Assembly (NCBI GenBank): GCA_963844965.1
Contig: CAWJQC010000007.1
Location: 160,001-224,000, forward strand
Reading direction: 5' to 3'
DNA length: 64,000 nt
DNA from: an uncultured bacterium
GTDB taxonomy: Bacteria > Patescibacteriota > Minisyncoccia > UBA6257 > 2-01-FULL-56-20
Every line of letters begins with the position of its first letter. The stretch's first letter is position 1. The position numbers were made by a program, and so were the translations under genes. The notes under the pieces were generated by a model, which saw nothing but the letters and a program-made list of their open reading frames with translations, searched no databases and was not told the origin of the DNA. Shown here piece after piece: positions 1,136 to 64,000 of this stretch.

Positions 1136-2519
1136 TCAAAGTCCGTAAGTGAACGGCGCGGCATAAAGGAAACCAGCGAAGCTCAAAATGGCGATGACGG
1201 CGAGTACCGCGCCCCGCCGAAGCGTAAGAGAATTCCAGTCGTCAACTTTCAGTATCTTCGTTATGGACCAGACGAGAAGGCCAATGGCGAAAATGTAGGC
1301 GGGGAAGTAGTGGTAAAGAAACGTGCTGCGGCGAACGATTGTGGCGAAGGGCAGGATGGATACAACGAAACCGGCGAGGAGAACGAAAAACGGCTTGTTC
1401 TCCCCGAAAGCGCGTGTTCGGAGGAATTTTTTAAGATAGCGCGGCAGGATGGCCAAGGCGCAGATCGCGGCGAGAGTACTTGAGTACCAGATGAAGGGAT
1501 TGCCGGTAAGGACAATTTGTTTCACGTGGTTCGCGACTGTCTCGTAAAAATATGTCATGGGAATTTGCATCGCCGGCCAGAGAGTACCACGGACTCTGAA
1601 GTATATTTGGACTACCCACGACATAGTTGCCGAAAGAAAAGAAGAGATCGGCAAGCGGAGCTGTGAGGTAGGGGAGACGAGGTGTTGCCGTGTAGGATAT
1701 CATGCCCAAAGATTTCAGAACGTCCAGATGCTCCATCGGCGTAAATATCGCGTAATTTACGGAAAAGACAATAAGGAACACAAGCACCGCGGCTATAGAA
1801 AATTTTTTCAGGTCGCTTTTCTCTGCAGCGGTTTCGCCGGTTTTTTTCTTCAGTAGATAATAAATCAAGAGGGGTCCCGCGAATACTACGGCCGTCATCT
1901 TCACTCCCAAGGCGAGTCCCCAGACGGCGCCCGCGGCCGTGGGCCACTGCGGTTTTTTGAAATAAAGCGCTAGAGCGGCAAAACCGAAAGCGAGGTACAT
2001 CCCGTCCATGAGAATCAGGCGCGTTTCAAGAAGCAATGCGTTCTCAAGTGTCAAAAATAACGCCCCTAAGATGGCGCCAATATTCGGCACGCCAAGGCTT
2101 CTAAGGAACCAATAAAAAATTAAGGCGAGCGCCGCGCCGAAAATCGCGCTCACTACTCTCAGAGGTATGTATGGAAAATTATTGAATGGTGAATTGCCGC
2201 CGGTAACGGTTATCTCGTCGCCGCCGGCTTTTTCTTGGCCTTTGATTATTACGAAATCGGTATTCTTGACGTTCTGCGGCGTTGCCGCGAGGGACAGGGT
2301 CGCCGAGTAGATTAACTTGCCGAACGGCGGATGGATGTCAAAGAACGGCACGCCCTTCACGTAATCCGCGGCGTAGGTCGCGAAATGCGCCTCGTCAAAA
2401 ACCGGTCGCGGCGGATAAGAAATATTCAAAAGGTGAAGATAAAAGCCGAGAGCCGTTATGGCGACAAGCGTGGCGAACGTGAAAATTTTATTTTTGGACA
2501 TTTCCGTTTTTCCGACCAC
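1136..2519 (-). CDS. membrane glycosyltransferase, GT39/PMT (dolichyl-phosphate-mannose protein mannosyltransferase)-like; reading frame broken between ORFs 1431-2519 and 1136-1654
   Basis: multi-TM N-terminus with PMT-like motifs (FDEAHFATYA, HPPFGKL); the two overlapping ORFs together span a typical ~460 aa PMT protein; apparent frameshift in the 1431-1654 overlap. Confidence 0.55.
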
Positions 2520-4423: not shown

Positions 4424-6252
4424 ATGTCACCGAGCAACAAGTACAACGAAAGTTATATTTCGCCTTGGGAGGGTGATAAAGACGCCATGGTGGGCAAGAG
4501 CGGAAGGTCTAAATCGGCGAAGCACCGCAACCGCGGCCCCATATTGATCGCTGTGGCGGCGCTTATCGCGGTAATAGCCGTCTTATTTTATTTCGCGTTT
4601 CTGCGGAAACCGGCGGGGCCGGATGTGGGCATGGAATTTCTGAATCCTGGAGCGATACTGGCCGGCGACGGGTTCACTCTCACAGTTTCGATTTCCAATT
4701 ATTCGGACATTGTTCTCCGGGACGCGAGGGTTTCGCTTGTTCTGCCCGACGGCGTTTCGTTTACGGAATCGCAGGCCGACCAGCGCGTTGATGAGAGAAC
4801 CATAGGCGATTTCGGGCCCGGGAGCGTCAATCAACAGTCCTTTAATTTGATAGTTACGAACGGCAGCAATGTATTGAAACATATCCAGGCTAAATTTGAC
4901 TACGCGACGGGCGGGAGCACAAGCGCCGAATTTGAGAGTGTCGGAGAATATGATCTCTCGGTTGGGCAACCGGCAATCGGTTTGAATCTGAGCGCGCCGC
5001 AGAGCATTTTCAACAGCCAGGATTTCACAGTCAAGGTTTCGTACATAAACAACACCAGCCACGATTTCAAAAATTTGCATTTAAACGTTGATTATCCGCC
5101 GATATTCGGATTCAAATCCAGCACGATGCAGCCCGAGTCCGGGAGCAATAATTCTTGGGATTTAGGGACGCTCGCTTCCGGCTCCAGCGGCGTTATATCC
5201 ATAACCGGCAGCGTTGTTGGGCCGGAAAAGTCGTTTTTCAACTTCGGCGCTTCTTTAACATCCGACCTTATGGGTAATACTTACACGATCAATAGCCAGA
5301 CGGCGTCCGTGGCCATTTCCGCGGCGCCGCTCGCGCTTCAAGTCACGCGCCGGAGCACGGCGGATAATGCACTGCATGCCGGTGACCCCGTTACTTACAA
5401 TCTTAATTACGTGAATAATTCCGATGTTACCATGCAGGACGTTACGATAAGCGCCAAACTTACCGGTGAAATGTTTGATTTCACGACGGTTGACACCAAA
5501 GCCTACTTTAATTCGCTGACCGATACGATTAATTGGTTCGCGGCGAACACTCCGGAGCTCCAGAGCATCGCTCCGGGACAGGGAGGGTCGGTTGCTTTCG
5601 CGATCAAAGTCAAAGATTCTTTTCCGATCCGGCTGATGAGCGACAAAAATTACACCTTGCGGCTGGACGCGCAGATTCATCCCCGACGGTTCCGGCAAAT
5701 ACGGCCGCGAACAAGACGGTTTCCATTGCCAGCATTGAAGACAAAGTCGCGGGAAAAATTGATCTGGCGGCGGAAGCGTATTGGCGCGACGCGCAGAGCG
5801 GGATTTTAAATCAAGGGCCTTACCCGCCGAGAGTGGATCAGCCGACGCAGTACACCATACACTGGCGGCTCACAAATTATTCCACAGACGTGGCAAATAT
5901 CACGGTTTCGGCGTATCTGCAGTCAGGCAGCCGGTTCACTGGAGTTGTGAGTTCCAATATCGCGAGTAGCACGCCGACGTACAATCCGGATTCCGGCCTG
6001 GTTACGTGGCAGGTCGGTTCTTTGCCGGCAACGAAAGGGATCACTGGAGCTCCGGCCGAAGCGGTTTTCCAGATAGAAAACACGCCGTCACTCACGCAGG
6101 TCAACCAAAACGTGTCGCTTCTGGGGGAAACGAAAGTTGAGTGGACGGATTCTTTCGTTGGAGCGGTGTACGACGCTACTGCTCCGCCGCTGGACACCTC
6201 CCTTCCGTATGATAAAACGATAACGGATACAGGCAGGACGGTGGAGAATTAG
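4424..6252 (+). CDS. large secreted or surface protein with DUF11-type conserved repeat domains; frame broken near 5683 (C4 run), joining ORFs 4424-5809 and 5533-6252
   Basis: N-terminal TM/signal anchor, repeated beta-rich modules rich in N/S/T; one extra C would join the two ORFs into a ~609-aa protein. Confidence 0.55.
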
Positions 6253-6310: not shown

Positions 6311-7675
6311 ATGGACAAGATTGTGTCTTTGGCGAAGCGCAGAGGGTTTATTTTCCCCGGCTCGGAAATTTATGGAGGACTTGCCAACTCCTGGGATTAT
6401 GGGCCGCTTGGTGTGGAGCTCAAGAATAATATCAAAAATTTCTGGTGGGACAGATTTGTGCACAGGCGCGACGACATCGTGGGATTGGACGCGGCTTTAA
6501 TAATGAACCCCAAGGTGTGGGAAGCGAGCGGTCATCTCAAAGAATTTATTGACCCGTTGATTGAATGCAAAAAGTGCCACGAACGCTTCCGCGCCGACGA
6601 GCTTTTTAAAAAAGGCAGCTGGAAGAAAGAGCAGGAATTCTTGGGAACGCTTTCGGAAGCCGACAAAGAGAAAAGGGTCCGCGACCTGTTTGACAAATGC
6701 CCGAGTTGCGGTGCGGAAGACCAGTTTACGATACCGCGCAATTTCAACATGATGTTTAAGACGTTCATCGGCCCCGCCTACGGCGAGAAATCCGTCGCTT
6801 ACTTCAGGCCGGAAACGGCGCAGGCGATGTTCGTTGATTTCAAGAGTATTTTGAACACAACGCGCAAGACCGTTCCTTTCGGCATCGCCCAGGTTGGAAG
6901 GGCGTTTAGGAACGAAATAACGCCGGGCAATTTCGTTTTCCGGACAAGAGAATTTGAGCAAATGGAAATAGAATATTTCATCCGCGAGAAGGACTGGGAA
7001 AAATATTTTGACTATTGGCGCAAGGAGATGCTGGATTGGGTCGGGGATCTGGGTATCAAACCGGCGCGCATCCACGAGAGCGAAATCAAAGAGGAAGACC
7101 GCGCGCATTATTCGTCAAAAACCGTGGATTTTGAATACAATTTCCCGTTTGGCAGAAAAGAACTTTACGGCTTGGCGTATAGAACGGATTTTGACCTCAA
7201 GAATCATGAAAAGTTTTCCGGCGCTAACCTGAAGTACCGCGATCCGAAAACCGGAGAGGAGTTCTGGCCGCACGTCATTGAGCCGAGCATGGGTGTTGAG
7301 CGCCTTTTGCTTGCCGTAATGCTTGAAGCGTATGCCGAGGATGGCGACAGAGTTATTTTGAAACTTCCGGCAAAATTGGCGCCGCATAAGGCGGCGGTGT
7401 TTCCGCTCTTGGCCAACAAGCCAGAACTTATAAAGCTCGCAAAGAAAATATATGACGATTTGCGCCAACAGTTCGTGGTCGCTTGGGACGACCGCGGCAA
7501 CATCGGCAAGCGCTACTACGCGCAGGATGAAATCGGCACGCCCTGCTGCATCACCGTTGATTTTGATTCGCTGGAGGAGGACGACGTTACCGTGCGTGAT
7601 AGAGATACGGCGAAACAGGAGAGGATTAAAATAGCCGAACTCGAAGAATATTTGAAAGAGCACATAGGACCATGA
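6311..7675 (+). CDS. glyQS: glycine--tRNA ligase (class II, alpha2 type)
   Basis: strong similarity to GlyRS (FPGSEIYGGLANSWDYGPLGVELK...; class II motifs; anticodon-binding C-terminus). Confidence 0.9.
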   Translation: MDKIVSLAKRRGFIFPGSEIYGGLANSWDYGPLGVELKNNIKNFWWDRFVHRRDDIVGLDAALIMNPKVWEASGHLKEFIDPLIECKKCHERFRADELFKKGSWKKEQEFLGTLSEADKEKRVRDLFDKCPSCGAEDQFTIPRNFNMMFKTFIGPAYGEKSVAYFRPETAQAMFVDFKSILNTTRKTVPFGIAQVGRAFRNEITPGNFVFRTREFEQMEIEYFIREKDWEKYFDYWRKEMLDWVGDLGIKPARIHESEIKEEDRAHYSSKTVDFEYNFPFGRKELYGLAYRTDFDLKNHEKFSGANLKYRDPKTGEEFWPHVIEPSMGVERLLLAVMLEAYAEDGDRVILKLPAKLAPHKAAVFPLLANKPELIKLAKKIYDDLRQQFVVAWDDRGNIGKRYYAQDEIGTPCCITVDFDSLEEDDVTVRDRDTAKQERIKIAELEEYLKEHIGP

Positions 7676-8664
7676 CGGAAGTAATCGAACAGAAGGAGGA
7701 GCAGGTGGAAGCAGAAAAAGAACCGAAAATGAATTTTACGATATTTTATTCGGGTCATGTCAGAGCAGGAGATTTTGATAAATTGAAAGCGCTCTTCGAA
7801 GAAGCTGATATATACGTTCCGGAATCTATTGGATGGGATAAAAGGGAAAAGGAACTCTTTAGCAGGATGTCGGCTGGAGAGATAGACGGGGAAACATTTA
7901 AAGAAATGTTGTCGAAGTTCGAAAAAGACGACCCCGTCCTAGCCGAGGAATATAAGATAATTTACAATTCACATAAACCGATAGAATTCCTCGATGTTCC
8001 CGGAGATAATCAGACACATAAAGACACCGTGATGGCTCTTGAGGGCGAGTACGACGCTTATCTCGGTTTTTTGGACGGAGAATTTGACGAGGCGGTCTCG
8101 GAAATGAAGGGAGCTTCGGAAAAGTATGCAATTGCGCAGCAGGAACGGGAAAAGTACATAAAGTCGTTGGCGAACAGCAGATTGAAAGATTTAGTCGAGA
8201 AAAACCAGGCGCTTAAAGACAAGATTAAAAAAGGAGGCGGTATAAATGTTTTAATGAGCATAGGCGCGGATCACACGGCATTGGCCAGCGGTTTAAAAAA
8301 GGATTGGCCAGGGGGCGTAGAGACGAAATTCAGCGACTCGCCCTTTATATTCGATTATGACGCGGAATTGTACCGGCGTTATATGTTCAATAAGGAAGTT
8401 GGCGATGAATTGGTTGCCAAAGCCTTACTTTCCAGAGGATTGGTCTATAAATTTCGAAATTTTTGCAGAAATCATCAAGAGATAAGCGTTGTTTCAAGAA
8501 AAATTATTTCCGGCTTGACGTTTAATGATATAAGGAAAATTTCCGAAAGTTTGGGGGCTGGCGACGATTTGCAAAAAGCTTTTGATTCGTTGGGCAGGGA
8601 TATAAAAATCCCCGAATCGCGCGAAGAAGTAGATAAAATACTAGGAAAAAATAATAAATCATGA
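7672..8664 (+). CDS. hypothetical protein (330 aa), translationally coupled to glyQS (ATGA overlap)
   Basis: ORF with a start overlapping the glyQS stop; no family recognised. Confidence 0.5.
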   Translation: MTEVIEQKEEQVEAEKEPKMNFTIFYSGHVRAGDFDKLKALFEEADIYVPESIGWDKREKELFSRMSAGEIDGETFKEMLSKFEKDDPVLAEEYKIIYNSHKPIEFLDVPGDNQTHKDTVMALEGEYDAYLGFLDGEFDEAVSEMKGASEKYAIAQQEREKYIKSLANSRLKDLVEKNQALKDKIKKGGGINVLMSIGADHTALASGLKKDWPGGVETKFSDSPFIFDYDAELYRRYMFNKEVGDELVAKALLSRGLVYKFRNFCRNHQEISVVSRKIISGLTFNDIRKISESLGAGDDLQKAFDSLGRDIKIPESREEVDKILGKNNKS

Positions 8665-8803
8665 ATCCCGTTAAAAGCCCTGCCTGGCAGGCAGGCGCGG
8701 TCGCGTTGCAATAAATAAATTTATCAATACTATACTATGAAAAAGTTGAGTGAGGTAAAAAAATGTATGCAGGGCGGTACGACCGCGACCTGCTTCTAGC
8801 GGG

Positions 8804-10069
8804 ATGAAATTCATTATCCACGGCGGTAAAAAACTTTCGGGCGAAATAGAAGTGATGGGCGCCAAAAATTCGGTTTTGAAGGCGATGGCGGCTTCGCTTT
8901 TGTTCGCGAACCCCGTGACGATAGAAAATGTCCCGCAGATTGAGGACGTGGCGCGTATGTCCGAATTGCTTATGGACTTGGGAGCCGCGATAAAGAAACC
9001 GGACGAGCGGACGCTCGTGATTGATTGTGGCGTCGTCAGAGAAACGGCGATAAAAACCGAAATTGCCAACAAACTCCGCGCTTCAATCGTTCTCGCGGGA
9101 CCGCTTCTCGCGCGGAGCGGCAATGTTATTTTTCCGCATCCCGGCGGCTGCGTGATAGGGAAACGCCCAATTGATATATTTCTGGACGGCTGGCGGGCGA
9201 TGAGGGCGAAAGTGGAGGAAAAGAAAAATCGTTTTGGGGTCTCGGCGAAGAAACTTTTCGGCGCGGATTTCACTTTCCGCGTCGTCTCGGTGACGGGAAC
9301 GGAAACGTTAATGATGACGGCGGCACTGGCGCACGGGAAGACGGTTTTGCGTAACGCCGCCTGCGAGCCGGAAATTCCGGCTCTCGCGGAATTTTTGAAC
9401 AACTCCGGAGCGAAGATAAAGGGAGCCGGAACACCGATGATTGAAATTGAAGGGACCGGCGGCAAGTTGCTCAAAGCGAAGCGTCCGTTCCGCGTCATTC
9501 CGGATAGGATTGAAGCCGGAAGTTTCCTGATTTTGGGCGCGGCTCTCGGGAAAAAAGTCAGAGTAACCGATTGCGACCCCGAGCACCTTTCGGCGCTTAT
9601 GATTCAACTCAAGGACGCCGGCGTGAATTTGAAAGTTGAAAAAAATTGGATTGAGGTCGGGCGGCCGAAGCATCTCAAGGCCGCGAATGCCAAAACAAAA
9701 GAATATCCCGGCTTTCCCACGGACCTTCAGGCGCCGTACGCCGTGCTTATGACGCAAGCCGAAGGCGAAAGCATGATTTTTGAAACGATTTTTGAGGGGC
9801 GGCTGGCTTACGCTGACGACCTGAAGCGAATGGGAGCGAATATCGTCCTATGCGACCCGCATAGGATTTTGATTAAGGGTCCGACGCCGCTCCACGGCCG
9901 CGAGATGGAAATGCCGGATCTCCGCGCCGGTCTCGCGTTTGTCATCGCCGCTTTATTGGCGGAAGGCGAATCAACGATAGGTAACGTTTATCAGATAGAC
10001 CGCGGCTACGAAAAGATAGATGAGCGACTGAGGAAGCTGGGAGCGGAGATTGAAAGAACGGAACGGTGA
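8804..10069 (+). CDS. murA: UDP-N-acetylglucosamine 1-carboxyvinyltransferase
   Basis: full-length similarity to MurA (EPT family; KNSVLK, active-site C in GGCVIG). Confidence 0.9.
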   Translation: MKFIIHGGKKLSGEIEVMGAKNSVLKAMAASLLFANPVTIENVPQIEDVARMSELLMDLGAAIKKPDERTLVIDCGVVRETAIKTEIANKLRASIVLAGPLLARSGNVIFPHPGGCVIGKRPIDIFLDGWRAMRAKVEEKKNRFGVSAKKLFGADFTFRVVSVTGTETLMMTAALAHGKTVLRNAACEPEIPALAEFLNNSGAKIKGAGTPMIEIEGTGGKLLKAKRPFRVIPDRIEAGSFLILGAALGKKVRVTDCDPEHLSALMIQLKDAGVNLKVEKNWIEVGRPKHLKAANAKTKEYPGFPTDLQAPYAVLMTQAEGESMIFETIFEGRLAYADDLKRMGANIVLCDPHRILIKGPTPLHGREMEMPDLRAGLAFVIAALLAEGESTIGNVYQIDRGYEKIDERLRKLGAEIERTER

Positions 10070-10082
10070 GTGAGTCATTCTG

Positions 10083-10107
10083 AGCGTAGCGAAGAATCTC
10101 CACGCGC
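10083..10107 (+). repeat. bipartite motif GTCATTCTGAG-N5-CGAAGAATC placed 13 nt after the murA stop and 18 nt before the GIY-YIG gene start; second copy at 54011-54046
   Basis: 11-mer plus 9-mer shared between the two sites in the same orientation relative to the downstream gene. Confidence 0.55.
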
Positions 10108-10125
10108 AGTTATTTCACATATATC

Positions 10126-10425
10126 GTGACTAACAAGTATAATTCGGTTATTTATACTGGTATCACGAACGACATCGTGCGGCGAATGGGTGAGCATGTT
10201 CGCAAAGCGGTTCCGGGTTTTACATCAAGATATAGTGTATGTAAATTGGTGTGGTTCGAAGAATTCAAGACACCGGAGGAGGCCATCACCGCAGAGAAAC
10301 GAATCAAAGGGTGGGTGCTAAAAAAGAAAGTGGCGTTGATCAAAGAGAAAAATCCTGAATTCATAGATTTATTGCATGGAGATCCTTCGGTTTTGCCTCA
10401 GGATGACAATGGGGAGAGGCGTTGA
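10126..10425 (+). CDS. GIY-YIG nuclease family protein (COG2827/UPF0213-like small protein), GTG start
   Basis: GIY-YIG motif VIYTGITNDIVRRMGEH; ~99 aa, typical size for this family. Confidence 0.7.
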   Translation: MTNKYNSVIYTGITNDIVRRMGEHVRKAVPGFTSRYSVCKLVWFEEFKTPEEAITAEKRIKGWVLKKKVALIKEKNPEFIDLLHGDPSVLPQDDNGERR

Positions 10426-10457
10426 TTTTTATACTCAAAAGATATAGATTTAAGTCA

Positions 10458-11466
10458 ATGTTCACCAAGAAAATCGGTATTGACTTAGGCACGACCAACA
10501 CCGTGGTTTTCGTGCCTGGCAAGGGATTTATCATCAACGAGCCGACTATTGTCGCCTTGATTAAGCCCGACAATACGGTGCTTGCCGTGGGTGTGGAGGC
10601 GAAGGAAATGATCGGGCGGACGCCGGAAGAAATCGTCGCCTACAGGCCGCTTAAGGATGGCGTGATTGCCGACTATTACATCACGAAGGCGATGCTTACG
10701 TATTTCATCTCCAAGGCCTCTGGCTGGTTCAATGTTTTCAAACCGGACGTTGTCATCTCGGTTCCGGCTGGAATTACGCAGACCGAGCGGCGCGCCGTTA
10801 CGAACGCCGCGAAAGAAGCCGGAGCGGGAAACGCTTTTATCGTGCGCGAGCCGGTTCTCGCCGCTTTGGGCGCTGGAATTCCAATTAACGCCCGTTCGGG
10901 GAACATGATCATCAACATCGGCGGCGGCACTTCCGAAGTCGGCGGTCATCGCTTTGGGCAGCATAGTTTCCTGGACGAGCTTGCGCATTGCCGGCAACAG
11001 ATTTGACCAGGCAGTCAGCGATTATGTGAAAAGGAAATACGCCTTGGCCATCGGCGAGCAGACGGCCGAGAACGTGAAAATTGAGATCGGCTCGGCATGG
11101 CGACAAAAGAAAAGATGGAATATGAACTCCGCGGCCGCGATTTGATAACCGGGCTGCCGAAAGATATATGTCATCAATTCCAACGAAATAGCGGACGCAC
11201 TGAATCCGTTCCTCGTGGATATCGCCGGCTCAATTCAAAGCGTTTTTAACGTGACTCCGCCGGAGCTTGTCGCGGACATCATGGAGAAGGGGATTATTCT
11301 TTCCGGCGGCAGCGTCCAGCTTCACAATATGCCGGAATTTTTTGAAAGATTTTTGGGCGTGCAGGCCTATGTCGCCGAGGATCCGTTATTCTGCGTCGCC
11401 AAAGGCACGGGGCTGATTCTGGACCACTTGGATATGTATAAGAGGACGCTTTTGAACAAGAGATAA
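10458..11466 (+). pseudogene. mreB: rod shape-determining protein MreB, interrupted by three frameshifts (~10935 extra G; ~11110 missing A in an A-run; ~11180 extra T in ATATAT)
   Basis: three ORF pieces (10422-11006, 10954-11145, 11215-11466) each align with consecutive MreB segments (GIDLGTTNT..., IGGGTSEV..., EYELRGRDLITGLPK..., C-terminal GGSVQL...); may be an assembly artefact. Confidence 0.6.
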
Positions 11467-11467
11467 T

Positions 11468-12395
11468 ATGGAAGCTGGGTTGCAAAAACTGTTTCGCTGC
11501 ATACTTCACGGGAGTTTTGGGAGGTATTTTGACGAGATAAAACGGGTTCGTCGCATTTTTGTTGCCGCCGGCATTGAAGTGCTCGCGCCGAGAGCCGAAG
11601 AGATCAAAAAGATCGAGAATGGTTTCGCGATTTTTGATGGCGACGGCGATGCGGATCCGCGTCTGATTGAACTTCGCTATTTACATAATCTTAAATGCCT
11701 TGGCGAGGACGGTTTCAGTTATTTTGTAAATCCCGAGGGATATATCGGCAAAAGCGCCTCTTATGAACTCGGCATTGCGCAAGTTTCAAACGTGAGATGT
11801 TTCTTTGTGGAAAAACTGGCCGATCATCCGGCGTATCTCCACGCGAACTCCATCTGGAAACCGGAATTGCTGGCTGAATTCATAAAAGAAAAAAAACGCT
11901 TACCTGAGCCGCAAATCAAGCCGAACGAGGTTAAGATACACAAATTATGGGAAGAGCTTATGGTACCCGGCTCGGTGGTTGCCGTCGGCGGCATTATTGA
12001 ATACGTGTCGGACAAGAAAGAAAAAGAAATTTTACTTGTGAAGACGCACAAGTGGGGCGGGCGGTACTCTATCGTCGGCGGGAGGGTGCGCAGGAATGAG
12101 CGACTTAATGATGCGTTAACCCGCGAGTATCAGAGAAGAAACTGGTTTAAAATCGTACATCGGCGAACACATATGCACCTTTGATCAGATAAAAAACTCC
12201 GGTTATTACTTGAGCGGCATTCAGCATGTTTTTGTGGATAAAATCGTGCGCGTGACAGATAAGCGTGTCCGTTTGAACGAGGAGGCGCAGGAATTTTTAT
12301 GGGTTCCGCCTAAGATTGCGCTCGGCGAATTAGACATAGAACCCAACGCGCGGCAAACCCTGAGCCTTTATTCAAAAATGACCGTTGTATCATAA
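11468..12395 (+). CDS. two-domain protein with an uncharacterised N-terminal domain and a C-terminal Nudix hydrolase domain; frameshift near 12128
   Basis: Nudix box GGRV...NERLNDALTRE / IREETGL is split across two frames (ORFs 11468-12184 and 12210-12395). Confidence 0.5.
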
Positions 12396-12403
12396 CAAAG
12401 AGC

Positions 12404-13283
12404 ATGCTCATCGGCCACGGAAAAATCATTGAGGACCTGAAACGGCTGGCAGCCGAGAAAAAACTTTCGCACGGCTACATTTTTTACGGTCCGGCGATGG
12501 TCGGGAAGCGGCTTGTGGCTCAGAACTTCGCGAATTTTTTGGAGACCGACGATTTCAGCGAACCGAAATTATTAAGAGATACTCTGCTCATTGCGCCGGA
12601 CGCGAAAGGAACGGTAAGCATTGATTCCATCCGCACGATAAAAAATTTCCTCTGGCAAAAGCCGAACACTAGTGCCTATCGCACGGTTATAATTGACGAT
12701 GCCGAACTTATGACGTCGGAGGCACAGAAACGCCCTGCTCAGAGTTGCCGAGGAGCCGCCGCATTCCACACTCCTCATTTTGATTACAAGCGATATTGAC
12801 GGGTTAGCGGAGACGATAACTTCGCGGCTCCAGAAAATTTATTTTTCTGTTGTTCCCCGGAGGGCGCTGGCGGATTGGGCGAGGCGAGAGTTTCCCGACG
12901 CCAAAAATTTGGAAGGATTTGTGGCGCGTTCGTTCGGGAAACCGGGCCTCCTTTCGGCGATGATTCGGGATAAAAAATTCCAGGCGCTTTTGAAGTTGGC
13001 CGATGATTTGCTAAAATTAAAAGGCGATAAGCGTGATTTCATAAAAAGATTGCTTGCACCGGAAGATTTTGACCTCCCGAAATTTCTTGACGCGCTAATA
13101 CTTGTTATTTCATCGGAAGCGCCTTGCCCTCCTAACTTTTTGCGAACCAAAGCGATGATTGATGCCAACTCAATCGCGCAAAAAGTTTGGAGGGTGAACT
13201 GGCACAAGTTTCTGGAGTTGAGGCGCGAAGTTGCCTACTTTAATCTCAATCCGCGTTTGCAATTGGAAAATTTATTTCAATAA
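12404..13283 (+). CDS. holB: DNA polymerase III delta-prime subunit-like AAA+ protein; frameshift near 12735 (AAA/AA)
   Basis: Walker A GPAMVGKR, then IIDDAELMTSEAQ / NALLRVAEEPP and SRLQ continue in the next frame (ORFs 12404-12799 and 12780-13283). Confidence 0.6.
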
Positions 13284-13295
13284 TCCACCGAATCA

Positions 13296-13859
13296 ATGCC
13301 TCCCATAGCAGAACAATATCTAAAAGAATTGGAATCCGCGCTTAAAACCGTCGTGGATAAATTGCACGAGGAACTTCGGGCGATTCGGGGCAACCGGCCG
13401 TCGGCGGATATTATCTCGGACATCAAGGTTAACGTCTATGACCAGTGGATGACGGTGAAGCAGCTGGGTTCGCTCTCGGTTCTTCCGCCGCGCGGCGTTC
13501 AGGTTAATGTCTGGGACAAGAATGCCGTGGGCGCTGTCGCTAAAGCGATTGAGAGCGCGAAAATCGGGCTTTCCGTTACGAATGACGGCAACAACGTGAT
13601 AGCGACACTTTCGCCTTTGGGCAACGAGCGGCGGGAAGAGCTCACAAAGCTTGTCAAAAAAACCGCCGAGGGCTACAGAATTCAAATCAGGGCGAAGCGG
13701 GACGAGGCGATAAAGAAATTGAAAGAAGCGGAGACGAGCAAGCAGGCGAGCGAGGATGAGGTTTTTAAAACGAAGGAAAAAATTCAAAAAGCTGTGGACG
13801 AAGCGAACAAGAAAGTGGAGGAGATGGTTGAAGGAAAACTGAAGGAGCTGGCGGAGTAA
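13296..13859 (+). CDS. frr: ribosome recycling factor
   Basis: full-length RRF similarity (RGNRPSADIISDIKVNVY...). Confidence 0.85.
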   Translation: MPPIAEQYLKELESALKTVVDKLHEELRAIRGNRPSADIISDIKVNVYDQWMTVKQLGSLSVLPPRGVQVNVWDKNAVGAVAKAIESAKIGLSVTNDGNNVIATLSPLGNERREELTKLVKKTAEGYRIQIRAKRDEAIKKLKEAETSKQASEDEVFKTKEKIQKAVDEANKKVEEMVEGKLKELAE

Positions 13860-13939
13860 GCGGCCAGCCCCCTGCGTTATTCATAATTCACGCGAATCAA
13901 CTCGCTAACTAATTAACCGACTAATTTAACTAATAATCT

Positions 13940-15013
13940 ATGTTAATCGTCCTTATCGTTATCATCGGTCTTTCGCTTTTGATTCTCGGCCACGAAGCCG
14001 GCCATTTTTTTGTGGCCAAACTTTTCGGAATGAAAATAGATGAATTTGGTTTCGGTTTCCCGCCGCGGATTACCGCGAAGAAGAAAGGGGAGACGGAATA
14101 CAGCGTAAATTGGCTGCCGTTCGGCGGGTTCGTGAAAATCGCCGGCGAGGACGATTCAGCGCCTTCGGGTAAAGTCGGAGAACAGGCGGACGGACAAGCC
14201 GGCGGTGTTTCGGAAGAAGAAAAGAAAAAATTGTTTAACTTCCGGCCGGTTTGGCAGAGAGCCCTCGTTCTTTTTGCCGGCGTCGCCGCGAATATGATAA
14301 TCGGCTGGCTTCTGCTGTCGCTTGTCTTTTTTGTCGGGGCACCCTCTGCGCTTGCGATAGCCGCCGTGCAGAAAAATTCTCCGGCGGAAAAAGTGGGTCT
14401 CTTGGCTGGCGACGTCATAGAACATTACGCGAACTATACGGATTTCATCAAATTTGTGGATGACAATCGCGGCAGACCGATAACCATAAGCGTCCTGCGC
14501 GCCGGCAAAGAGCTGACTTTCAGCGTTGTTCCGAGAACCGAAACCGCTCCCAACGAAGGAGCCATAGGAATTGAGATCGCGGAAGGCGGGCCAGTGGCCG
14601 AAAGTTTGCCGAGCTCGCTCTATGATGGTTTTAGGGTATCCGTTGAAATTTTGGGATTGACCTACGTGGCGTTGTATCAGCTTGTGGTCGGTTTGCTTCT
14701 GCACGCCTCTTTGATTCCCGGCGTGGTTGGTCCGATCGGCATTGTCGCGGTCGCGTCCGAGACGAGCAAGCTCGGATTTATGTACTTCGTTTCTATTATC
14801 GCGCAGATATCCTTGGGACTCGCGGCGATCAACTTCATCCCGTTTCCCGCGCTTGACGGAGGCAGATTCTTTCTTCTTTTGATCGAAAAAATCAAGGGCT
14901 CCCGCGCCTTTTCGCAAAGAGTTGAGGCCACGATCAACAACGTCGGATTGGCGTTCCTGATAGTTCTGATTCTTTTGATAAGCATCCGGGATTTTTCGTA
15001 TTACATACTGTAA
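13940..15013 (+). CDS. rseP: RIP metalloprotease RseP (site-2 protease, M50 family)
   Basis: HEAGHF zinc motif in TM1, PDZ-like middle region, multi-TM. Confidence 0.8.
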   Translation: MLIVLIVIIGLSLLILGHEAGHFFVAKLFGMKIDEFGFGFPPRITAKKKGETEYSVNWLPFGGFVKIAGEDDSAPSGKVGEQADGQAGGVSEEEKKKLFNFRPVWQRALVLFAGVAANMIIGWLLLSLVFFVGAPSALAIAAVQKNSPAEKVGLLAGDVIEHYANYTDFIKFVDDNRGRPITISVLRAGKELTFSVVPRTETAPNEGAIGIEIAEGGPVAESLPSSLYDGFRVSVEILGLTYVALYQLVVGLLLHASLIPGVVGPIGIVAVASETSKLGFMYFVSIIAQISLGLAAINFIPFPALDGGRFFLLLIEKIKGSRAFSQRVEATINNVGLAFLIVLILLISIRDFSYYIL

Positions 15014-17435: not shown

Positions 17436-17926
17436 CTTTTAATGACGCTCGGAGAAAAAGATTCCCCCGGAACTATAAGATACGCAAAGCTGCGCGAGCT
17501 GTTGTTTTTGATTCAGAAGGGAAAATAGCATTACTCCATGTTACCAATCACCATTATTATAAAATTCCTGGTGGTGGCATCGAAAAGAACGAGGATGTCT
17601 TAGCGGGTCTCAGAAGAGAATGTCTAGAAGAAATCGGTTGCGATATTGAGATTGCGGGGGAGATAGGAAAGATAATCGAACATCGTCATTTTCCTGATGC
17701 CCAGGATGAGGAACAGGAATCGTTTTGCTATACCGCCAACGTAAAAGGAGAGAAGGGAAACCCTCATTTTGAGCAGGGTGAGATTGATGATGGATTTCAG
17801 GCACAATGGGTAGACTTGAAAACTGCGATCAATTTGTTGAGAAACAGCAAGCCCGATACTTATGAAGGTTCATTCATCGTTGCGAGAGATCTTAGATTTA
17901 TCGAGGAAGCCATTAAGAATACCTAA
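17423..17926 (+). CDS. Nudix hydrolase with no canonical in-frame start; probable 1-nt indel near the A5 run at 17455-17459, with the ATG at 17442 in the other frame
   Basis: continuous 168-codon frame ...RKAARAVVFDSEGKIALLHV...PGGGIEKNEDVLAGLRRECLEEIGC (Nudix box) lacking ATG/GTG/TTG; inserting one base joins it to MTLGEK...; absent from the ORF track. Confidence 0.55.
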   Translation, partial: FSYATFNDARRKRFPRNYKIRKAARAVVFDSEGKIALLHVTNHHYYKIPGGGIEKNEDVLAGLRRECLEEIGCDIEIAGEIGKIIEHRHFPDAQDEEQESFCYTANVKGEKGNPHFEQGEIDDGFQAQWVDLKTAINLLRNSKPDTYEGSFIVARDLRFIEEAIKNT

Positions 17927-18506: not shown

Positions 18507-18586
18507 GGGCCCCGTAGCGCAGATTGGTCAGCGCGCCCGACTGTTCAAGCGGGAGGTCGCTGGTTCGAATCCAGCCGGGCCCACCA
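18507..18586 (+). tRNA. tRNA with an aberrant 8-nt anticodon loop (CUGUUCAA); best guess Asn (GUU); CCA encoded
   Basis: acceptor GGGCCCC/CGGGCCC with a 7-66 mismatch, D-stem GCGC/GCGC, T-arm GCTGG-TTCGAAT-CCAGC; the anticodon stem is only CCCG/CGGG, so identity is uncertain (possible indel). Confidence 0.45.
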
Positions 18587-18614: not shown

Positions 18615-18703
18615 GGCGGGATGGCGGAGTGCTAATCGCGGCAGGCCGTAACCCTGCTCTCCCATCGCGGAGTTCGAAGGTTGAAATCCCTCTCTCGCCA
18701 CCA
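18615..18703 (+). tRNA. type II (long variable arm) tRNA, Tyr-like (anticodon GUA) with an unusual C33; CCA encoded
   Basis: acceptor GGCGGGA/TCTCGCC, anticodon stem GCAGG/CCTGC with loop CCGUAAC, variable stem-loop CTCC-CATCGC-GGAG, T-arm GAAGG-TTGAAAT-CCCTC. Confidence 0.5.
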
Positions 18704-18717
18704 AATTTTTTGGATTC

Positions 18718-18788
18718 GGCGCGGTCGTCAAGTGGCAAGACTGAGGGCTTGCAAGCCCTTATCGGGGGTTCGATTCCCTCCCGCGCCT
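18718..18788 (+). tRNA. tRNA-Cys (anticodon GCA)
   Basis: acceptor GGCGCGG/CCGCGCC, anticodon stem AGGGC/GCCCT with loop UUGCAAG, T-arm GGGGG-TTCGATT-CCCTC, discriminator U. Confidence 0.75.
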
Positions 18789-19455
18789 ACACCCTACACA
18801 TTTTTTGAAACTAAAATGTGTAGGGCTCTTTCTCTCAGTCTCGGCAACCCCGACGTAAAGTCGGGGTTAAAGTCAGCATTGGGATGGTTGGCATTTCCGC
18901 CGCAAGGCGGAAAATTAAGAGCGAATGGTGGATGCCCTTGACATCAAAAGGCGACGAAGGACGCGGCGTAGCGGCGATACGCCTCGGGGAGGTGCGTAGC
19001 AACCTGTGATCCGGGGATTTCCGAATGGGGAAACCCAATTGAGCAAACCTCAATTTTTTTGCCGCAAGGCAAAAAGCAAACCCGCTGAAGTAAAACATTC
19101 CAGTAAGCGGAGGAATAGAGAACTAATGTTATTCCCTTAGTATCGGCGAGAGAAAAGGGAAGAGCCTAAACCTAAGTTTTCGCAAGAAAAGTTTGGTGTT
19201 ATAAGGTAAAAACACTTTGGATATAACGTTGAGCGTTATCCGCCAACGGCGGAGCGGCGACCAGCGTTATATCTAAAAAGGAGTTACAAATTGATTTGTT
19301 AGCCGAAGCCCACTGGAAAGGGGCGCCAAAGGGGGTGATAGCCCCGTAGGCGAAAACGAATCAACTTCTCGTTTTTATCCTTGAGTACTCTGAGGTAAAT
19401 TAGCTTCGGAGGAATTCGCCTGTACTATCAGGCAAGGCTAAATACTTTTGATGAT

Positions 19456-19492
<37 letters not shown>

Positions 19493-19687
19493 CAGGCCGG
19501 TGAGGCCGTTGAAATAGAACCTGAAACCATTCGTTTACAAGGAATTGAACCACGAACGTTCTGCCGCAAGGCGGGACGAGTGGGACAATGTGCCTATTGA
19601 AGAATGAGCCAACGACTTATTTTGCATTGCTCGTGTAAGCATCTATAAGATGCGTACGCACAGCGAAAGCGAGTCTTAATAGGGCGA

Positions 19688-19972
19688 AAACCATCTCAAA
19701 TTTTTGGACTGAAAAATAAAAACCGGTCAGTTTTTAGCTGCCGGTCTGCGAGATACCAATTCTTGTTCTAATTTTCTGACCTGAGCGTCCAGTTTTTCTT
19801 GAAGGCCACGATGCCTCAAGTATCTCCTGCCGCTTACGTGCGATCGATGTTTTTTCCTGGTCCAGATGGAATGTTGGGCCACGCAAACTCCTTTTGTCGG
19901 GCGACTGTAGATCTGGAAGGATTTTAGGATGAGCCGAATAGAAAGTCAACAGTCCAAAAATTTGAGATGGTT
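19688..19972 (+). other. 23S IVS-a (~285 nt) at the helix-25 position, flanked by a perfect 21-nt inverted repeat CCATCTCAAATTTTTGGACTG / CAGTCCAAAAATTTGAGATGG
   Basis: conserved 23S sequence resumes on both sides; long perfect stem typical of RNase III-processed IVS. Confidence 0.65.
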
Positions 19973-20479
19973 AGGCAGTGCAACATAGACCCGAAGCCAG
20001 ATGAGCTTGCCTTGGCCAGGGTGAAATCCGCCGAAAGGCGGATGGAGGCCCGAACTGGTGGGTTGTTCAAAACCTTCGGATGAGCTGAGGTAAGGAGTGA
20101 AAAGCTAATCGAATCTGGTAATAGCTGGTTCTCTCCGAAATAGTTTTACGACTAGCGGCGCAGAAAATTTCGCGGGGGTAGAGCACTGGATGATTCGTAA
20201 AGGCCGAAAGGCCGACGAATCAATCAAACTCCGAATACCGCGATTGGAACCTGCGCTAGTCAGACTGCGGGGGCTAAGCTCCGTGGTCGCGAGGGAAAAA
20301 GCCCAGATCGTCAGCTAAGGTCCCTAAATCCATGCTAAGTGTTAAAGGTAGTCTTCTGCCATAAACAGATAGGAGGTTGGCTTAGAGGTAGCCATCCTTT
20401 AAAGAGTGTGTAACAACTCACTATTCGACGGCAGGGGGCGCGAAAATGTACCGGGGCTAAGCATGGTACCGAAGCTACG

Positions 20480-20585
20480 AATTACCTTGTGCTCCGCACA
20501 AGAATTTTCAGGTAATAATTTTCAATTTTCAAATGGTTTGGAAATTGTAAATTGCAAAATTGGAAATTCTCGCGCGCAGCGCGAG
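20480..20585 (+). other. 23S IVS-b (~105 nt) at the helix-45 position; interior is related to IVS-d
   Basis: an insertion lies between GTACCGAAGCTACG and GTAGTGGTAGGAGAGCATTC; interior aattttcaaatggtttggaaattg is similar to 21275-21330. Confidence 0.6.
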
Positions 20586-20885
20586 GTAGTGGTAGGAGAG
20601 CATTCGTATTGCACTGAAGCTCGACCCGCGAGGGCGAGTGGAGCGGTACGAAGAGACAATGTTGGTATGAGTAACCACAATCCCAATGAGAAATTGGAAC
20701 CCCGAAAATCCAAGGTTTCCGTGGCACTGGCAATCAACCACGGGTTAGGCGGCCCTAAGCCGATCCCGAAAGGGGCAGGCGATGGACAGACGGTTAATAT
20801 TCCGTCCCTTCCCTATGGTTATCTGCCGCATGACGGAGGAAATAAGCTTGCGTGCCTTATTGGTTTGGCATGGTTTGCCTCAAAG

Positions 20886-21033
20886 CGTGTCTCACTGCGT
20901 TCGACACTATAGTTAAACAATTTTTCAGTTAACGAGTTGCGAGTTAACGAGTTGAAAACAAAAAACCCGTTAACACGTTAACTCTTTAACTCGTTAATAA
21001 TTAATTATTGGGTGGCGAGCGGAGCGAGGCACG
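20886..21033 (+). other. 23S IVS-c (148 nt) with terminal stem CGTGTCTCACTGCGTTCG / CGAGCGGAGCGAGGCACG; interior made of TTAACG-family repeats
   Basis: 18-bp terminal pairing with 2 mismatches; interior matches intergenic repeats at 4330-4420 and 46880-46960. Confidence 0.6.
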
Positions 21034-21238
21034 TTGGAGGCCGACCGAAGGTTCGGTTTTTACCGGGCCGACGCAGGCGAAGAGCCTTCCAAGAAAAGCG
21101 CGGCGGTCACGCCGTAGAGAATCCGTACCGGAAACCGACACAGGTGGATTGGGCGAGAAGCCCTAGGGGAACGAGTGATTTGCCTCTAAGGAACTCGGCA
21201 AACAAGCGGCCGTAAGTTAGCAATATGGCCTGCCCGAC

Positions 21239-21352
21239 CGTGCCTCACTGCGTTCGGCGCGGAATTTAAAATTTTACAATTTTTAATTTTCAAACTGTTT
21301 GCAAAATTGAAAATTATATATTGAAAATTCCGCACGAGCATAGCGAGGTGCG
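21239..21352 (+). other. 23S IVS-d (114 nt) with terminal stem CGTGCCTCACTGCGTTCG / CGAGCATAGCGAGGTGCG
   Basis: left terminus identical to IVS-c and IVS-g at 17/18 positions. Confidence 0.6.
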
Positions 21353-21479
21353 GTTGGGCCGCAGCGAAAGTCCCTTTGGCGACTGTTTACCAAAAACACA
21401 GCTCCCTGCGAACTCGCAAGAGGATGTATAGGGGGTGACGCCTGACCGATGCGAGAAGGTCAAGGCCGACGGTGCACGT

Positions 21480-21565
21480 AGCACATAGCATGTAACACAA
21501 AACAAGAAAAAATAAATAAAACCTGCTCCATGTTACATGTTGCGTGCTGCGTGTGCTGATTGGCT
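21480..21565 (+). other. 23S IVS-e: expanded helix insertion with inverted repeat GCACATAGCATGTAACAC / CATGTTACATGTTGCGTGC
   Basis: extra ~70 nt relative to the conserved flanks AGAAGGTCAAGG ... GGTAACTATAACCG. Confidence 0.45.
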
Positions 21566-21887
21566 CAAGCCCTCGTCAATGTCAGCGGTAACTATAACCG
21601 TTCTAAGGTAGCGCAATTCCTTTTCGGGTAAGTTCCGAAGCGCACGAAAGGCGTAACGATCAAAGGACTGTCTCAGAGGCAAGCTCGGTGAAAATGCGAT
21701 TCCCGTGAAGACGCGGGATACCTGCAGCGGGACGAAAAGACCCCGGAAGCTTTACTGCAGCTTGGTATTGTTTCTAGGGCTTTGATGCGTAGCGTAGTGG
21801 GGAGCCTTTGAAGCTCCGCTCTCGGGCGGGGTGGAGGCGACAATGAAACACCCATCTTCAAAGTTTTAGCGACTAACCAGTTGGGGA

Positions 21888-21932
21888 CCCTACACTCTCT
21901 AGATAAATTTTGGAAATCCAGAGAGTGTAGGG
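21888..21932 (+). other. 23S IVS-f: hairpin insertion CCCTACACTCTCT-AGATAAATTTTGGAAATCC-AGAGAGTGTAGGG
   Basis: perfect 13-bp stem; its CCCTACAC...GTGTAGGG ends are shared with the hairpin at 18792-18825. Confidence 0.5.
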
Positions 21933-22297
21933 AAACCCAACCGGGACAGTGCTTGGTAGGCAGTTTAAATGGGGCGTTTTCCTCCAAAAAAGTAACGGAG
22001 GAGTTTATTAAGGTCGGCTTAGCCCGGATGGAAATCGGGCAGGACGTGCAAACGCAAAAGCCGGCTTAACTGCAAGGCCTACAAGCCGCGCAGATGCGAA
22101 AGCAGAAGTTAGTGACCCGACCACACATTATAGAATGGTGGGAGACACCGGACAAAAGCTACTCCGGGGATAACAGGCTGGTGAAGTCCGAGAGTCCCTA
22201 TCGACGACTTCGCTCGGCACCTCGATGTCGGCTCGGCACAGCGCGGGGGTGAAGAAGCTCCCAAGCGTTTGGCTGTTCGCCAATTAAAGTGCCACGT

Positions 22298-22338
<41 letters not shown>

Positions 22339-22456
22339 TGCTGCAGGCGTTTACACTTGAGGGGAGTTGGCCCTAGTACGAGAGGACTGGGCTGAACTGA
22401 CCTCTGGTCTACCGGCTTTGGTACCAACTGAAGCGCCGGGTAGCTATGTCGGGAAG

Positions 22457-22490
<34 letters not shown>

Positions 22491-22510
22491 ACCCCAAGAT
22501 TAGGTGTAGT

Positions 22511-24897: not shown

Positions 24898-25714
24898 ATG
24901 GCTGATATGGCTGAAGATAAATTGGCTGCCGCTGGCGGCCAGACAATTGCATATCCGGAAGAAGCTTCCCGCGAAATGATTGACGCGGGTGTTTTCTGCG
25001 GCCGCAAGAAGTCAAAGATCAACCCGAAGATGAAAGACTACGTCATCGCTAACCGCGGCGGCATCGGAATCATCAATTTGGCGAAAACCGTTGAAGCTGT
25101 GGACAAGGCCGCCGGACTTCTAAAAGAAAAAGTCAAAGGCGGCGGTCTCCTGCTTATTGTTGGCACGCAACCTCCTGCCGAGGAAGGTATTTTAAAACTG
25201 GCCAACAAATTTAACCTGCCGAGCGTGACTACGAGGTGGGCCGGGGGAACCATTACGAATTTCAAGATCATTTCCAAGCGGATCGAATATTTTAAAAAAC
25301 TTCGCGGTGACCTTGCATCCGGAGCTTTGACGGATAAATACACCAAGAAAGAACGCCTGATGCTTGAAAAGGAATTGGGCCGCCTTACGGAACTTTTCGG
25401 CGGGCTTGAAAGTTTAACAAGAGAACCGGACGTGCTGATAATTATTGATCCGAATCTTCACGAGCACTGCGGTTCGCGAAGCAAGGCGCATGAAGATCCC
25501 CGTGATTGCCCTGGCAAATGTTGATGCCGACCCGGATATGGTGGAATACCTCGTTCCAGGAAACGATAAATCGCGCAAGAGTATAAATTGGTTTTTGGGA
25601 AGGATTGAGTCGGCAGTGGAAGAAGCCGCGGCTATGCGCGCATCCGCCAAACTTGCCGAGGAAAAAGCGAAGGCAGAAACCCCCCCGGCAGATAAGGCAA
25701 AAAATAGTTTATAA
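24898..25714 (+). CDS. rpsB: 30S ribosomal protein S2; 2-nt frameshift near 25468 (CACAC collapsed?)
   Basis: DAGVFCGRKKSKINPKM...TRWAGGTITNF...IIDPNLHEH then TAVREARRMKIPVIA in the next frame (ORFs 24703-25524 and 25445-25714). Confidence 0.75.
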
Positions 25715-26734: not shown

Positions 26735-26740
26735 ACAAAT

Positions 26741-41226: not shown

Positions 41227-41289
41227 TTATCTATTAAGTTAATTTATGTTCCAATAAAAACGCCGCGCCTGTTGCGCGGCTGTTTTGTC

Positions 41290-63549: not shown

Positions 63550-64000
63550 TTGAAGACAAAATATAGAATATTAGATACAAGCAGAGTTCTGGGGATAATC
63601 TGCGCCGGCGGCGACGGAACCAGAATTGAGCCGCTTTCAAGATACAGAGCCAAACCGGCCATTCCGATCGGCGGCAGCCACCGGCTGATAGACATCGCGC
63701 TTTCAAATAGCCTGAATTCCGGATCACGCACAACTGCGTGATCGTCCAGAAACGTCCCCAATCTCTTGTCGCGCACCTTGACGGCTACTCCAACGGCGTG
63801 GCGCAGATGCGCGGGCAGTTCATCCACACGCTTTCTCCTCCGAGAGAGGAGGAGAGATTTTTCGCGTCGGATGTTGATTCGTTCATCCAGCTCCGCGGCC
63901 ACCTTGTGGCTGAGGGTTTTGATATCGTCCTCATAACTATGGCCGACCAGGTGGTAAAAATAGATTACCGGCAGGTTATTGAGAGTTTACTTGAGGGGAA
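63550..64000 (+). CDS. glgC: glucose-1-phosphate adenylyltransferase (partial, runs off the window end); frameshift near 63726 (missing A), TTG start
   Basis: [46 protein letters not shown], then conserved GlgC blocks continue in the +1 frame. Confidence 0.7.

Follow-up and report, generated by a model that had tools for sequence, protein, structure and literature searches.

Single-base indels splitting conserved genes in a Patescibacteria contig are probably consensus errors of the assembly

Within the 64-kb Patescibacteria window analyzed here (the window being the whole stretch of 64,000 nucleotides), nine single-base indels split conserved genes, the alignment resuming in another reading frame beyond each of them. 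Do these breaks reflect gene decay in the organism, an unusual mode of decoding, or errors in the assembled sequence? We favor the last answer with a probability of about 0.9: the shifts would be consensus indel errors, confined to stretches of poor quality in an assembly made from long reads, and not pseudogenes or recoding. Judging from the sequence, the broken genes are almost certainly an ordinary artefact and not a real feature of the organism.

Distribution of the indels in the window

The nine indels affect the genes for a PMT-like glycosyltransferase, a DUF11/CLIPPER-like surface protein, MreB (three indels), a Nudix-fusion protein, HolB, RpsB and a GlgC-like nucleotidyltransferase (Table 1). 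The sole evidence for a tenth site (17455), in a second Nudix gene, is the absence of an in-frame start: the first canonical start in frame is found only at aa 132, and the upstream ATG lies in another frame. One A is probably missing there from the A5 run. Nine of the ten break sites that had been listed from the sequence alone interrupt a conserved alignment, and all of them lie within about 15 nt of where they had been placed. Two of the shifts are redefined, since that in the DUF11-like gene is not in a C4 run, as had been proposed, but in the TT run adjoining it, and that in rpsB involves a single base instead of 2 nt.

The overall density is approximately one indel per 6 kb. Five of the ten sites (three in mreB, one in the Nudix-fusion gene and one in holB) fall within 1.8 kb, a clustering for which simulation gives a P of about 6e-4, and the density in this patch, at roughly 10.9-12.8 kb, reaches approximately one per 400 bp. 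The three mreB indels seem to belong to one local patch of low quality, which takes in the Nudix-fusion gene and holB as well. Insertions are in the majority (seven of the ten sites), and most sites are in runs of 1-3 bases. The sequence-only reading held that most shifts lie in homopolymers; when the run lengths were recounted, runs of at least 4 were involved only at 17455 (A5, the longest run at any site, the longest anywhere in the window being 8) and possibly at 5675-5684, that is, at one or two of the ten sites. As 9.9% of the window bases are in runs of at least 4, the homopolymer share of the sites is close to the chance expectation, and the homopolymer association of the indels is weak.

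A non-exhaustive Pfam check of 28 ORFs, mostly suspicious adjacent pairs at 23-62 kb, revealed no further split gene. A nonsense error was considered for the enolase ORF, behind which a second ORF continues in frame (41227-41553), and rejected, as this is a normal gene end.

Table 1. Positions in the window of the split genes, their indels and the aberrant tRNAs.
Feature	Position	Strand	Description
PMT-like glycosyltransferase	1580..1583	-	one extra base, TGG TAC T[C]TC TGG; L082 reads SPWYFWPAMQ
DUF11/CLIPPER-like surface protein	5675..5678	+	one base missing, ATT TCA to ATTCA
mreB	10458..11466	+	three single-base indels giving four ORF pieces; repaired product 335 aa
mreB indel 1	10940..10942	+	one extra base, GAA GTC G GCG GTC; relatives GAA GTN GCN GTN
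mreB indel 2	11096..11097	+	one base missing in between; the GCN Ala codon before ATG lacks its third base
mreB indel 3	11164..11169	+	one extra base inside ATATAT, AAA GAT ATA T GTC; relatives GAY AT- NNN
Nudix-fusion gene	11468..12395	+	NUDIX preceded by an unannotated N-terminal domain; split at 12128; 308 aa after repair
Nudix-fusion indel	12128	+	extra T in the Nudix box, CGC GAG T ATC AGA GAA GAA = RE/IREE
holB (DNA polymerase III delta')	12404..13283	+	split at 12728-12730; repaired product 292 aa
holB indel	12728..12730	+	extra A, CAG AAA C GCC; relatives Q-N-A = CAG AAC GCC
Second Nudix gene	17455..17459	+	A5 run, preceded by an ATG (17430 or 17442) and followed by a Nudix ORF without in-frame start
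tRNA (Asn-like)	18508..18586	+	8-nt anticodon loop CUGUUCAA; C:C mismatch in acceptor stem
tRNA-Cys	18718..18788	+	6-nt anticodon loop UUGCAA
rpsB	25462..25465	+	one extra base in CAC GAGC ACT; repaired S2 271 aa
glgC-like nucleotidyltransferase	63723..63724	+	one base missing, GGA ATC to GGATC

Repair of the split genes

Removing or adding one base per site restores full-length proteins that match their relatives end to end, and five repaired genes (MreB, HolB, RpsB, Nudix and PMT) carry no other lesion. Homology backs the merged reading frames of these five, each of which gives one contiguous Pfam match: MreB_Mbl (profile positions 2-326 of 327), DNA_pol3_delta2 (2-158 of 161), Ribosomal_S2 (1-215 of 216), NUDIX (10-130 of 134, in one stretch across aa 220) and, for PMT, a single match across the junction. 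Once the glgC frames are merged, the NTP_transferase match covers profile positions 2-123 instead of 2-48. The repair at 5675-5678 in the DUF11-like gene yields ISSPTVPAN, identical to the related locus L082, and 28 subjects are contiguous across this junction, as are six subjects at the rpsB junction. For holB, the ORFs of 66 relatives run through the junction and align to the window in two frames.

In the Nudix-fusion gene, the Nudix box at the 12128 junction reads RE/IREETGL, and the homologue in the related locus L001 is co-linear across it. The protein has 759 homologues, the best-listed of which are 295-340 aa long with 95-100% coverage. The gene sits between mreB and holB in the window and in L001, and not in L082.

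The gene with the most indels is mreB, whose ORF pieces extend over 10422-11006, 10954-11145, 11097-11249 and 11215-11466. Its indels were placed by DNA alignment with seven relatives. The repaired MreB matches a protein that also has 335 aa (P0001) at 94% identity and 100% coverage. The dN/dS of the repaired gene against 12 relatives is 0.03-0.065, and L082 compared with those relatives gives the same range; the dN to outgroups likewise equals that of L082. At near-invariant columns the repaired MreB has no private change; such changes average 0.93 per sequence in a set of 74, with a maximum of 5. Relatives do keep an intact mreB, a point that the sequence-only reading had raised: MreB is ungapped in all 73 of the 73 relatives having a full-length copy. 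In a collection of 15 billion proteins, neither MreB nor the Nudix protein was found in an intact form with 100% identity.

Aberrant tRNAs

Two of the eight tRNAs have aberrant anticodon loops, of 8 or 6 nt. The 8-nt loop of the tRNA first placed at 18507 had been tentatively ascribed to the same cause as the broken genes; the loop was confirmed (the tRNA starting at 18508), and it is joined by the acceptor-stem mismatch and by the 6-nt loop of a tRNA-Cys. The latter is one base shorter than its canonical L082 orthologue, whose loop CUGCAAA has the normal 7 nt, and it scores 48 bits vs 70 for that orthologue. Odd tRNAs in loci L004 and L020 were considered as counterparts and rejected, as they are different, unrelated molecules.

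Frameshift screen of related loci

As a control, an identical blastx frameshift screen was run on 81 related loci (1.29 Mb). It returned 14 events, ten of which are in the loci of two Microflora Danica (MFD) Nanopore MAGs (six in L007 and four in L034), so that the frameshift signature is enriched in Nanopore-derived relatives compared with the rest of the loci. These two loci show two or three shifts inside single genes, and the genes hit are unrelated to those of the window. The remaining four events are single ones, spread over about 1.14 Mb of loci that are not labelled MFD and are mostly short-read-style assemblies. Under the stringent blastx screen the window itself yields three events in 27 kb. 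No relative shares shifts at the comparable sites (mreB, holB, DUF11-like and rpsB). Errors in such MAGs are patchy and can number several per gene; multiple lesions in one gene are therefore not evidence of real decay.

Comparison with an independent assembly

Exact-protein look-ups led to eight Logan contigs of run ERR10755942 that match the window at 99.97% identity over 19.8 kb. None of the eight spans a frameshift site. The mreB-Nudix-holB cluster is flanked by two of them, at 6950-10328 and 12892-14339, both of which match the window at 100% identity; between these two contigs, from 10328 to 12892, no matching sequence was recovered. Eight of 17 intact proteins, compared with none of six frameshift fragments, are present in Logan, a marginal difference (P about 0.05, one-sided hypergeometric). 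Frameshift-derived fragments are on record solely from the 331,718-bp source contig, among them the fragment 11468-12184 (P0158); a look-up of the fragment 10458-11006 gave no record.

There are three substitutions between Logan and the window in the 19.8 kb, and the proteins P0283 and P0284 differ by F123L and F160S. The sole indel between the two that can be adjudicated is in a tRNA-Ala, where the Logan contig has C5 and the window, like L082, has the structurally required C6; here the window is correct. The underlying read set itself thus appears to be indel-noisy. Together with the 99.97% agreement, the correct state of the window at this indel suggests that the assembly is accurate over long stretches.

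Metagenome contigs were scanned twice with patterns that accepted the holB and mreB sites both with and without the indel, and no match was obtained. A chimeric query that joined the junctions of seven genes matched only PMT and DUF11 relatives and missed even the source's own fragments. To learn about the platform, the ends of the Logan contigs were also checked for coincidence with homopolymers, and no clear pattern was seen.

Origin of the indels

The following sequence of events would account for these data. The consensus of a metagenome-assembled Patescibacteria (Paceibacteria-like) genome would have kept uncorrected single-base insertions and deletions, each of which would put out of frame a gene that is otherwise intact and functional; gene callers would then report fragments. 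Errors of the same type would have distorted the two tRNA anticodon loops, and the cluster at approximately 10.9-12.8 kb may mark a local dip in coverage or in read agreement. We infer that the source was assembled from long reads at low coverage, possibly with Flye and a single Medaka round, the procedure used for the Microflora Danica MAGs. Indispensable single-copy genes (rpsB and holB) and structural RNAs are struck alike. The preference for sequencing or assembly error over true pseudogenes, already voiced in the sequence-only reading, is supported: the repairs restore full-length proteins, the homologues are co-linear and equally long, mreB is free of relaxed selection, essential genes are struck, the shifts are private wherever they were compared, and two Nanopore loci behave alike while the other relatives hardly do. 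Against an artefact, an insertion-rich set of indels in runs of 1-3 bases does not have the classical Nanopore profile of homopolymer deletions, the assembly is accurate over long stretches, and the repaired MreB and Nudix proteins have no intact, fully identical counterpart among the 15 billion proteins.

An artefact could also arise from heterogeneity rather than from low coverage. The consensus may be a collapsed mixture of strains that differ around mreB-Nudix-holB, with the indels at points of disagreement and the Nudix-fusion gene perhaps strain-variable. The sharp clustering of the errors fits such a mixture, as does the Nudix-fusion gene, which separates mreB from holB in the window and in L001 but is absent from that position in L082, and the few Logan-window substitutions mean that some population variation may exist. 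However, the Logan-window divergence is tiny overall, the five other sites are scattered and show no sign of structural variation, and L007 and L034 have comparable clusters in genes of other kinds. We regard a strain mixture as unlikely.

Genuine frameshifts would imply a population that is losing genes, with the triply struck mreB as a true pseudogene. Some cocci and reduced genomes can do without MreB, one 1-kb gene carries three lesions, and the deposited assembly does contain the fragments. However, neither the dN/dS nor the outgroup dN of mreB can be told from that of an intact relative, its conserved columns are free of private changes, and substitution-derived stops, larger deletions and truncations are all missing. 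Neutral decay is not expected to give three independent indels without any accompanying substitution, and the indispensable rpsB and holB and the tRNAs bear the same type of lesion. Genuine decay of mreB, which had initially been left as an option, is thus disfavored, and we consider real pseudogenes very improbable. Even less probable is that the indels are real at approximately one per 6 kb and are rescued by unrecognized recoding (expanded-anticodon tRNAs or RNA-level correction), or that the lineage is in acute mutational meltdown.

Decoding of the shifts by programmed ribosomal frameshifting, transcriptional slippage or quadruplet reading by the tRNA at 18508 would suit the majority of +1 insertions (seven of ten) and the expanded anticodon loop found in the same window, but its probability is negligible, since the sites share no motif, have no conserved slippery heptamer and no homopolymer of at least 9, the +1 sites require different amino acids, three sites are -1, and orthologues lack the shift at the compared positions. 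Quadruplet decoding in particular was rejected, as GAAC, the complement of the anticodon GUUC, is absent from all +1 sites, and the mismatched acceptor stem together with the 6-nt loop of the neighboring tRNA gives the tRNA at 18508 a damaged rather than a specialized look.

Consequences for annotation

Reading the indels as consensus errors has practical value only, as a quality warning, and the assembly is flagged for re-polishing. Annotation taken at face value would describe a genome without MreB, S2, HolB, GlgC and two tRNAs. This would skew what is counted for a CPR lineage as to completeness, metabolism and pseudogenes, and the aberrant tRNAs could be misread as recoding machinery.

Comparison with known systems

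Programmed +1/-1 frameshifting (prfB, dnaX) and the rescue by transcriptional slippage in endosymbionts rely on slippery or long poly(A/T) motifs, which are conserved and stand at conserved positions. The window resembles these systems in that a functional product would need a change of frame, and differs from them in having no motif, no conservation and mixed directions. The frameshift pseudogenes of genome reduction also consist of ORFs cut by 1-nt indels, sometimes with multiple lesions per gene; in contrast, the window shows no relaxed selection and no lesions of another type, and its indels reach into essential genes and tRNAs.

Indels are the characteristic residual error of Nanopore-only metagenome assemblies, for which the literature stresses errors derived from homopolymers (PMC12313526, PMC9262707). 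The indels of the window differ from that description in being mostly insertions outside long homopolymers, and the Nanopore source is in this case inferred. The likeness to such assemblies (Flye plus Medaka MAGs, as in Microflora Danica) lies in single-base indels that fragment conserved ORFs and in an indel density that is variable and often reaches several per gene, as in the MFD loci L007 and L034.

Split genes and merged reading frames

The window belongs to a 331,718-bp contig, deposited in NCBI and ENA, from a Paceibacteria-like member of the Patescibacteria. Where the frameshifts cluster, its genes run in the order murA, small GIY-YIG ORF, mreB, Nudix-fusion gene, holB, frr. mreB is split into four ORFs whose frames alternate (10422-11006, 10954-11145, 11097-11249 and 11215-11466), and DNA alignment with seven relatives shows that its length differences are exactly three, each of a single base. 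Nine of the ten sites listed in the sequence-only reading are real, with the shift in rpsB being one base instead of the two proposed. When the -1 of the DUF11-like protein is placed in the TT run, the peptide reads ISSPTVPAN, as in a relative. For the tenth site, at 17455 in a second Nudix gene, the support is indirect: the first canonical in-frame start of the ORF is at residue 132, and an out-of-frame ATG lies upstream, before the A5 run. An indel there, deduced from the missing in-frame start rather than from homology, is plausible.

Single-base frameshift sites in the window, and profile alignments of proteins repaired by removing or adding one base at each site
Feature	Position	Change	Context or basis
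mreB indel 1	10940-10942	extra base	DNA alignment with seven relatives
mreB indel 2	between 11096 and 11097	base missing	DNA alignment with seven relatives
mreB indel 3	11164-11169	extra base	inside ATATAT; DNA alignment with seven relatives
Nudix-fusion gene	12128	extra T	within Nudix box
holB	12728-12730	extra A	
PMT	1580-1583 (- strand)	+1	
DUF11-like protein	5675-5678	-1	TT run adjoining C4 run
rpsB	25462-25465	+1, single base	
glgC	63723/4	-1	
Repaired MreB			MreB_Mbl profile 2-326/327, single contiguous stretch across junctions
Repaired HolB			DNA_pol3_delta2 profile 2-158/161, single contiguous stretch across junction
Repaired RpsB			Ribosomal_S2 profile 1-215/216, single contiguous stretch across junction

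Homology support for the merged frames, by which the earlier reading was to be judged, is present in contiguous profile alignments, co-linear full-length relatives and blastx subjects. NUDIX and PMT_4TMC each give one contiguous alignment across the junction in the repaired Nudix-fusion and PMT proteins. The repaired MreB has 335 aa and aligns over 100% of its length, with identities of up to 94%, to relatives that are likewise 335 aa long, while the repaired Nudix-fusion protein (308 aa) has 759 homologues, the best listed of which are 295-340 aa long with 65-74% identity and 95-100% coverage. This family is large and conserved, and nearly all of its named homologues are from Patescibacteria. 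In blastx searches against the ORFs of 81 related loci, the same subject resumes in another frame for holB (66 subjects), the DUF11-like protein (28) and rpsB (6). The merged frames are real genes.

The N-terminal ~170 aa of the Nudix-fusion protein (11468-12395) have no Pfam match and precede the NUDIX domain; its gene separates mreB from holB in the window and in one relative (L001), whereas L082, the closest relative, lacks it at this position. Small intergenic GIY-YIG-type ORFs are found at 10126-10425 (murA/mreB gap) and about 62320-62628 (before an SDR gene). In L082 the murA/mreB gap is taken up by a different gene, of 286 aa, and a GIY-YIG ORF is found elsewhere. A single 502-aa ORF at 60155-61660 (- strand) joins LexA_DNA_bind and Peptidase_S24 (aa 18-208) in frame to an N6_N4 DNA methyltransferase domain (aa 256-487). 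Either LexA and the methylase are truly fused here, or a further indel or a lost stop has run two genes together. From the 23S rRNA start at 18905 to 22600, alignment of the window with L082 is confined to blocks of 91-100% identity with unaligned sequence between them, and L082 carries a LAGLIDADG ORF in this region, suggesting rRNA introns or insertions.

Assembly error, decay or recoding

We regard the indels as an assembly artefact, with a probability of about 0.9. The preference of the sequence-only reading for sequencing or assembly error over true pseudogenes is thus upheld, given normal selection on mreB, damage to essential genes and tRNAs, shifts that are private at the sites compared and the control on Nanopore loci. 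Because five of the ten sites fall within 1.8 kb (P about 6e-4), the three mreB hits are most readily explained as belonging to one low-quality patch, which extends over the Nudix-fusion gene and holB as well. The even spread proposed earlier, one site per 5-6 kb, does not hold; a Pfam check of 28 ORFs, mostly suspect neighbouring pairs between 23 and 62 kb, revealed no split sites between 25.5 and 63.7 kb. Nor are these mainly homopolymer errors, since runs of at least four bases are involved at the A5 site and at most one other, that of DUF11, about the chance expectation.

Real decay at mreB had been entertained because of its three hits. However, when compared with 12 relatives, the repaired gene and the intact L082 gene have dN/dS in the same range (0.03-0.065 for the repaired gene), and their dN values to each outgroup hardly differ. 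The repaired MreB has no private changes at near-invariant columns of a 74-sequence alignment (mean 0.93, maximum 5). mreB thus shows no decay, and three indels without accompanying substitutions are the wrong pattern for a neutral pseudogene. The neighbouring Nudix-fusion gene and holB are also affected, and the same lesion type occurs in rpsB and holB, genes that no cell can lose. As to whether relatives keep mreB intact, none has an mreB shift in common with the window, and no shared shift was found at the compared sites in mreB, holB, the DUF11-like gene and rpsB. Programmed recoding is disfavoured because the shifts are private at these compared sites, and the ten sites are mixed in direction (seven insertions, three deletions) and without a common motif or long slippery run.

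The tRNA at 18508 has an 8-nt anticodon loop, a defect of the same type as the gene indels, as the sequence-only reading suspected, and an acceptor-stem C:C mismatch; GAAC, the complement of its 4-nt anticodon, is absent from the +1 sites. The tRNA-Cys at 18718 has a 6-nt anticodon loop and scores 48 bits, vs 70 bits and a normal CUGCAAA loop in its L082 orthologue. Besides the canonical tRNA-Tyr (26653-26736), the window holds a Tyr-like tRNA at 18615-18703 (89 nt, anticodon GTA, C at position 33, 41 bits) with an unusual T-loop containing non-canonical pairs, which might represent a pseudo-tRNA or a damaged copy, or else be one more consensus error. In two short-read relatives, tRNA-like genes combine G3:U70 with abnormal anticodon loops as called by ARAGORN (L004 984-1058, 4-nt 'cgac'; L020 1341-1415, 2-nt 'gc'), and these are unrelated to the odd tRNAs of the window.

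Comparison with an independent assembly

Exact-protein look-ups placed the same organism in the Logan assembly of run ERR10755942, of which eight contigs represent 19.8 kb of the window with two indels and three substitutions. The differences lie at 2815, 3029, 26695-26697 and 61712; one indel, together with a mismatch, is 30 nt from a contig end. The protein at 28086-28865 differs from its Logan version by F123L and F160S. At 2815, in a tRNA-Ala, the window has C6, which is structurally required and matches L082, and Logan has C5. The Logan C5, the only adjudicable indel, is the error; therefore, this read set is indel-noisy. None of the Logan contigs retrieved reaches a frameshift site; the two nearest the cluster, one ending at 10328 and the other starting at 12892, are 100% identical to the window. 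None of six frameshift fragments tested is on record beyond its source, vs 8 of 17 intact proteins found in Logan (marginal, P about 0.05), and this absence would fit reads that disagree, or are few, where the frameshifts lie, without proving it.

Comparison with related loci

The identical stringent frameshift screen, applied as a control to 81 related loci (1.29 Mb), returned 14 events. Four isolated ones are in loci not labelled Microflora Danica (about 1.14 Mb, mostly short-read-style assemblies). No more than one event each was seen in the other Microflora Danica loci, some of which are complete chromosomes, and in the loci without that label. Lower-coverage MAGs have been reported to show low coding density (PMC12313526). 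The remaining ten events are in L007 and L034, both Microflora Danica Nanopore MAGs, with six at 8987-16046 of L007 and four at 14677-17094 of L034; one 420-aa gene alone has three of them. Single genes in these two loci are hit two or three times, giving the same patchiness as in the window.
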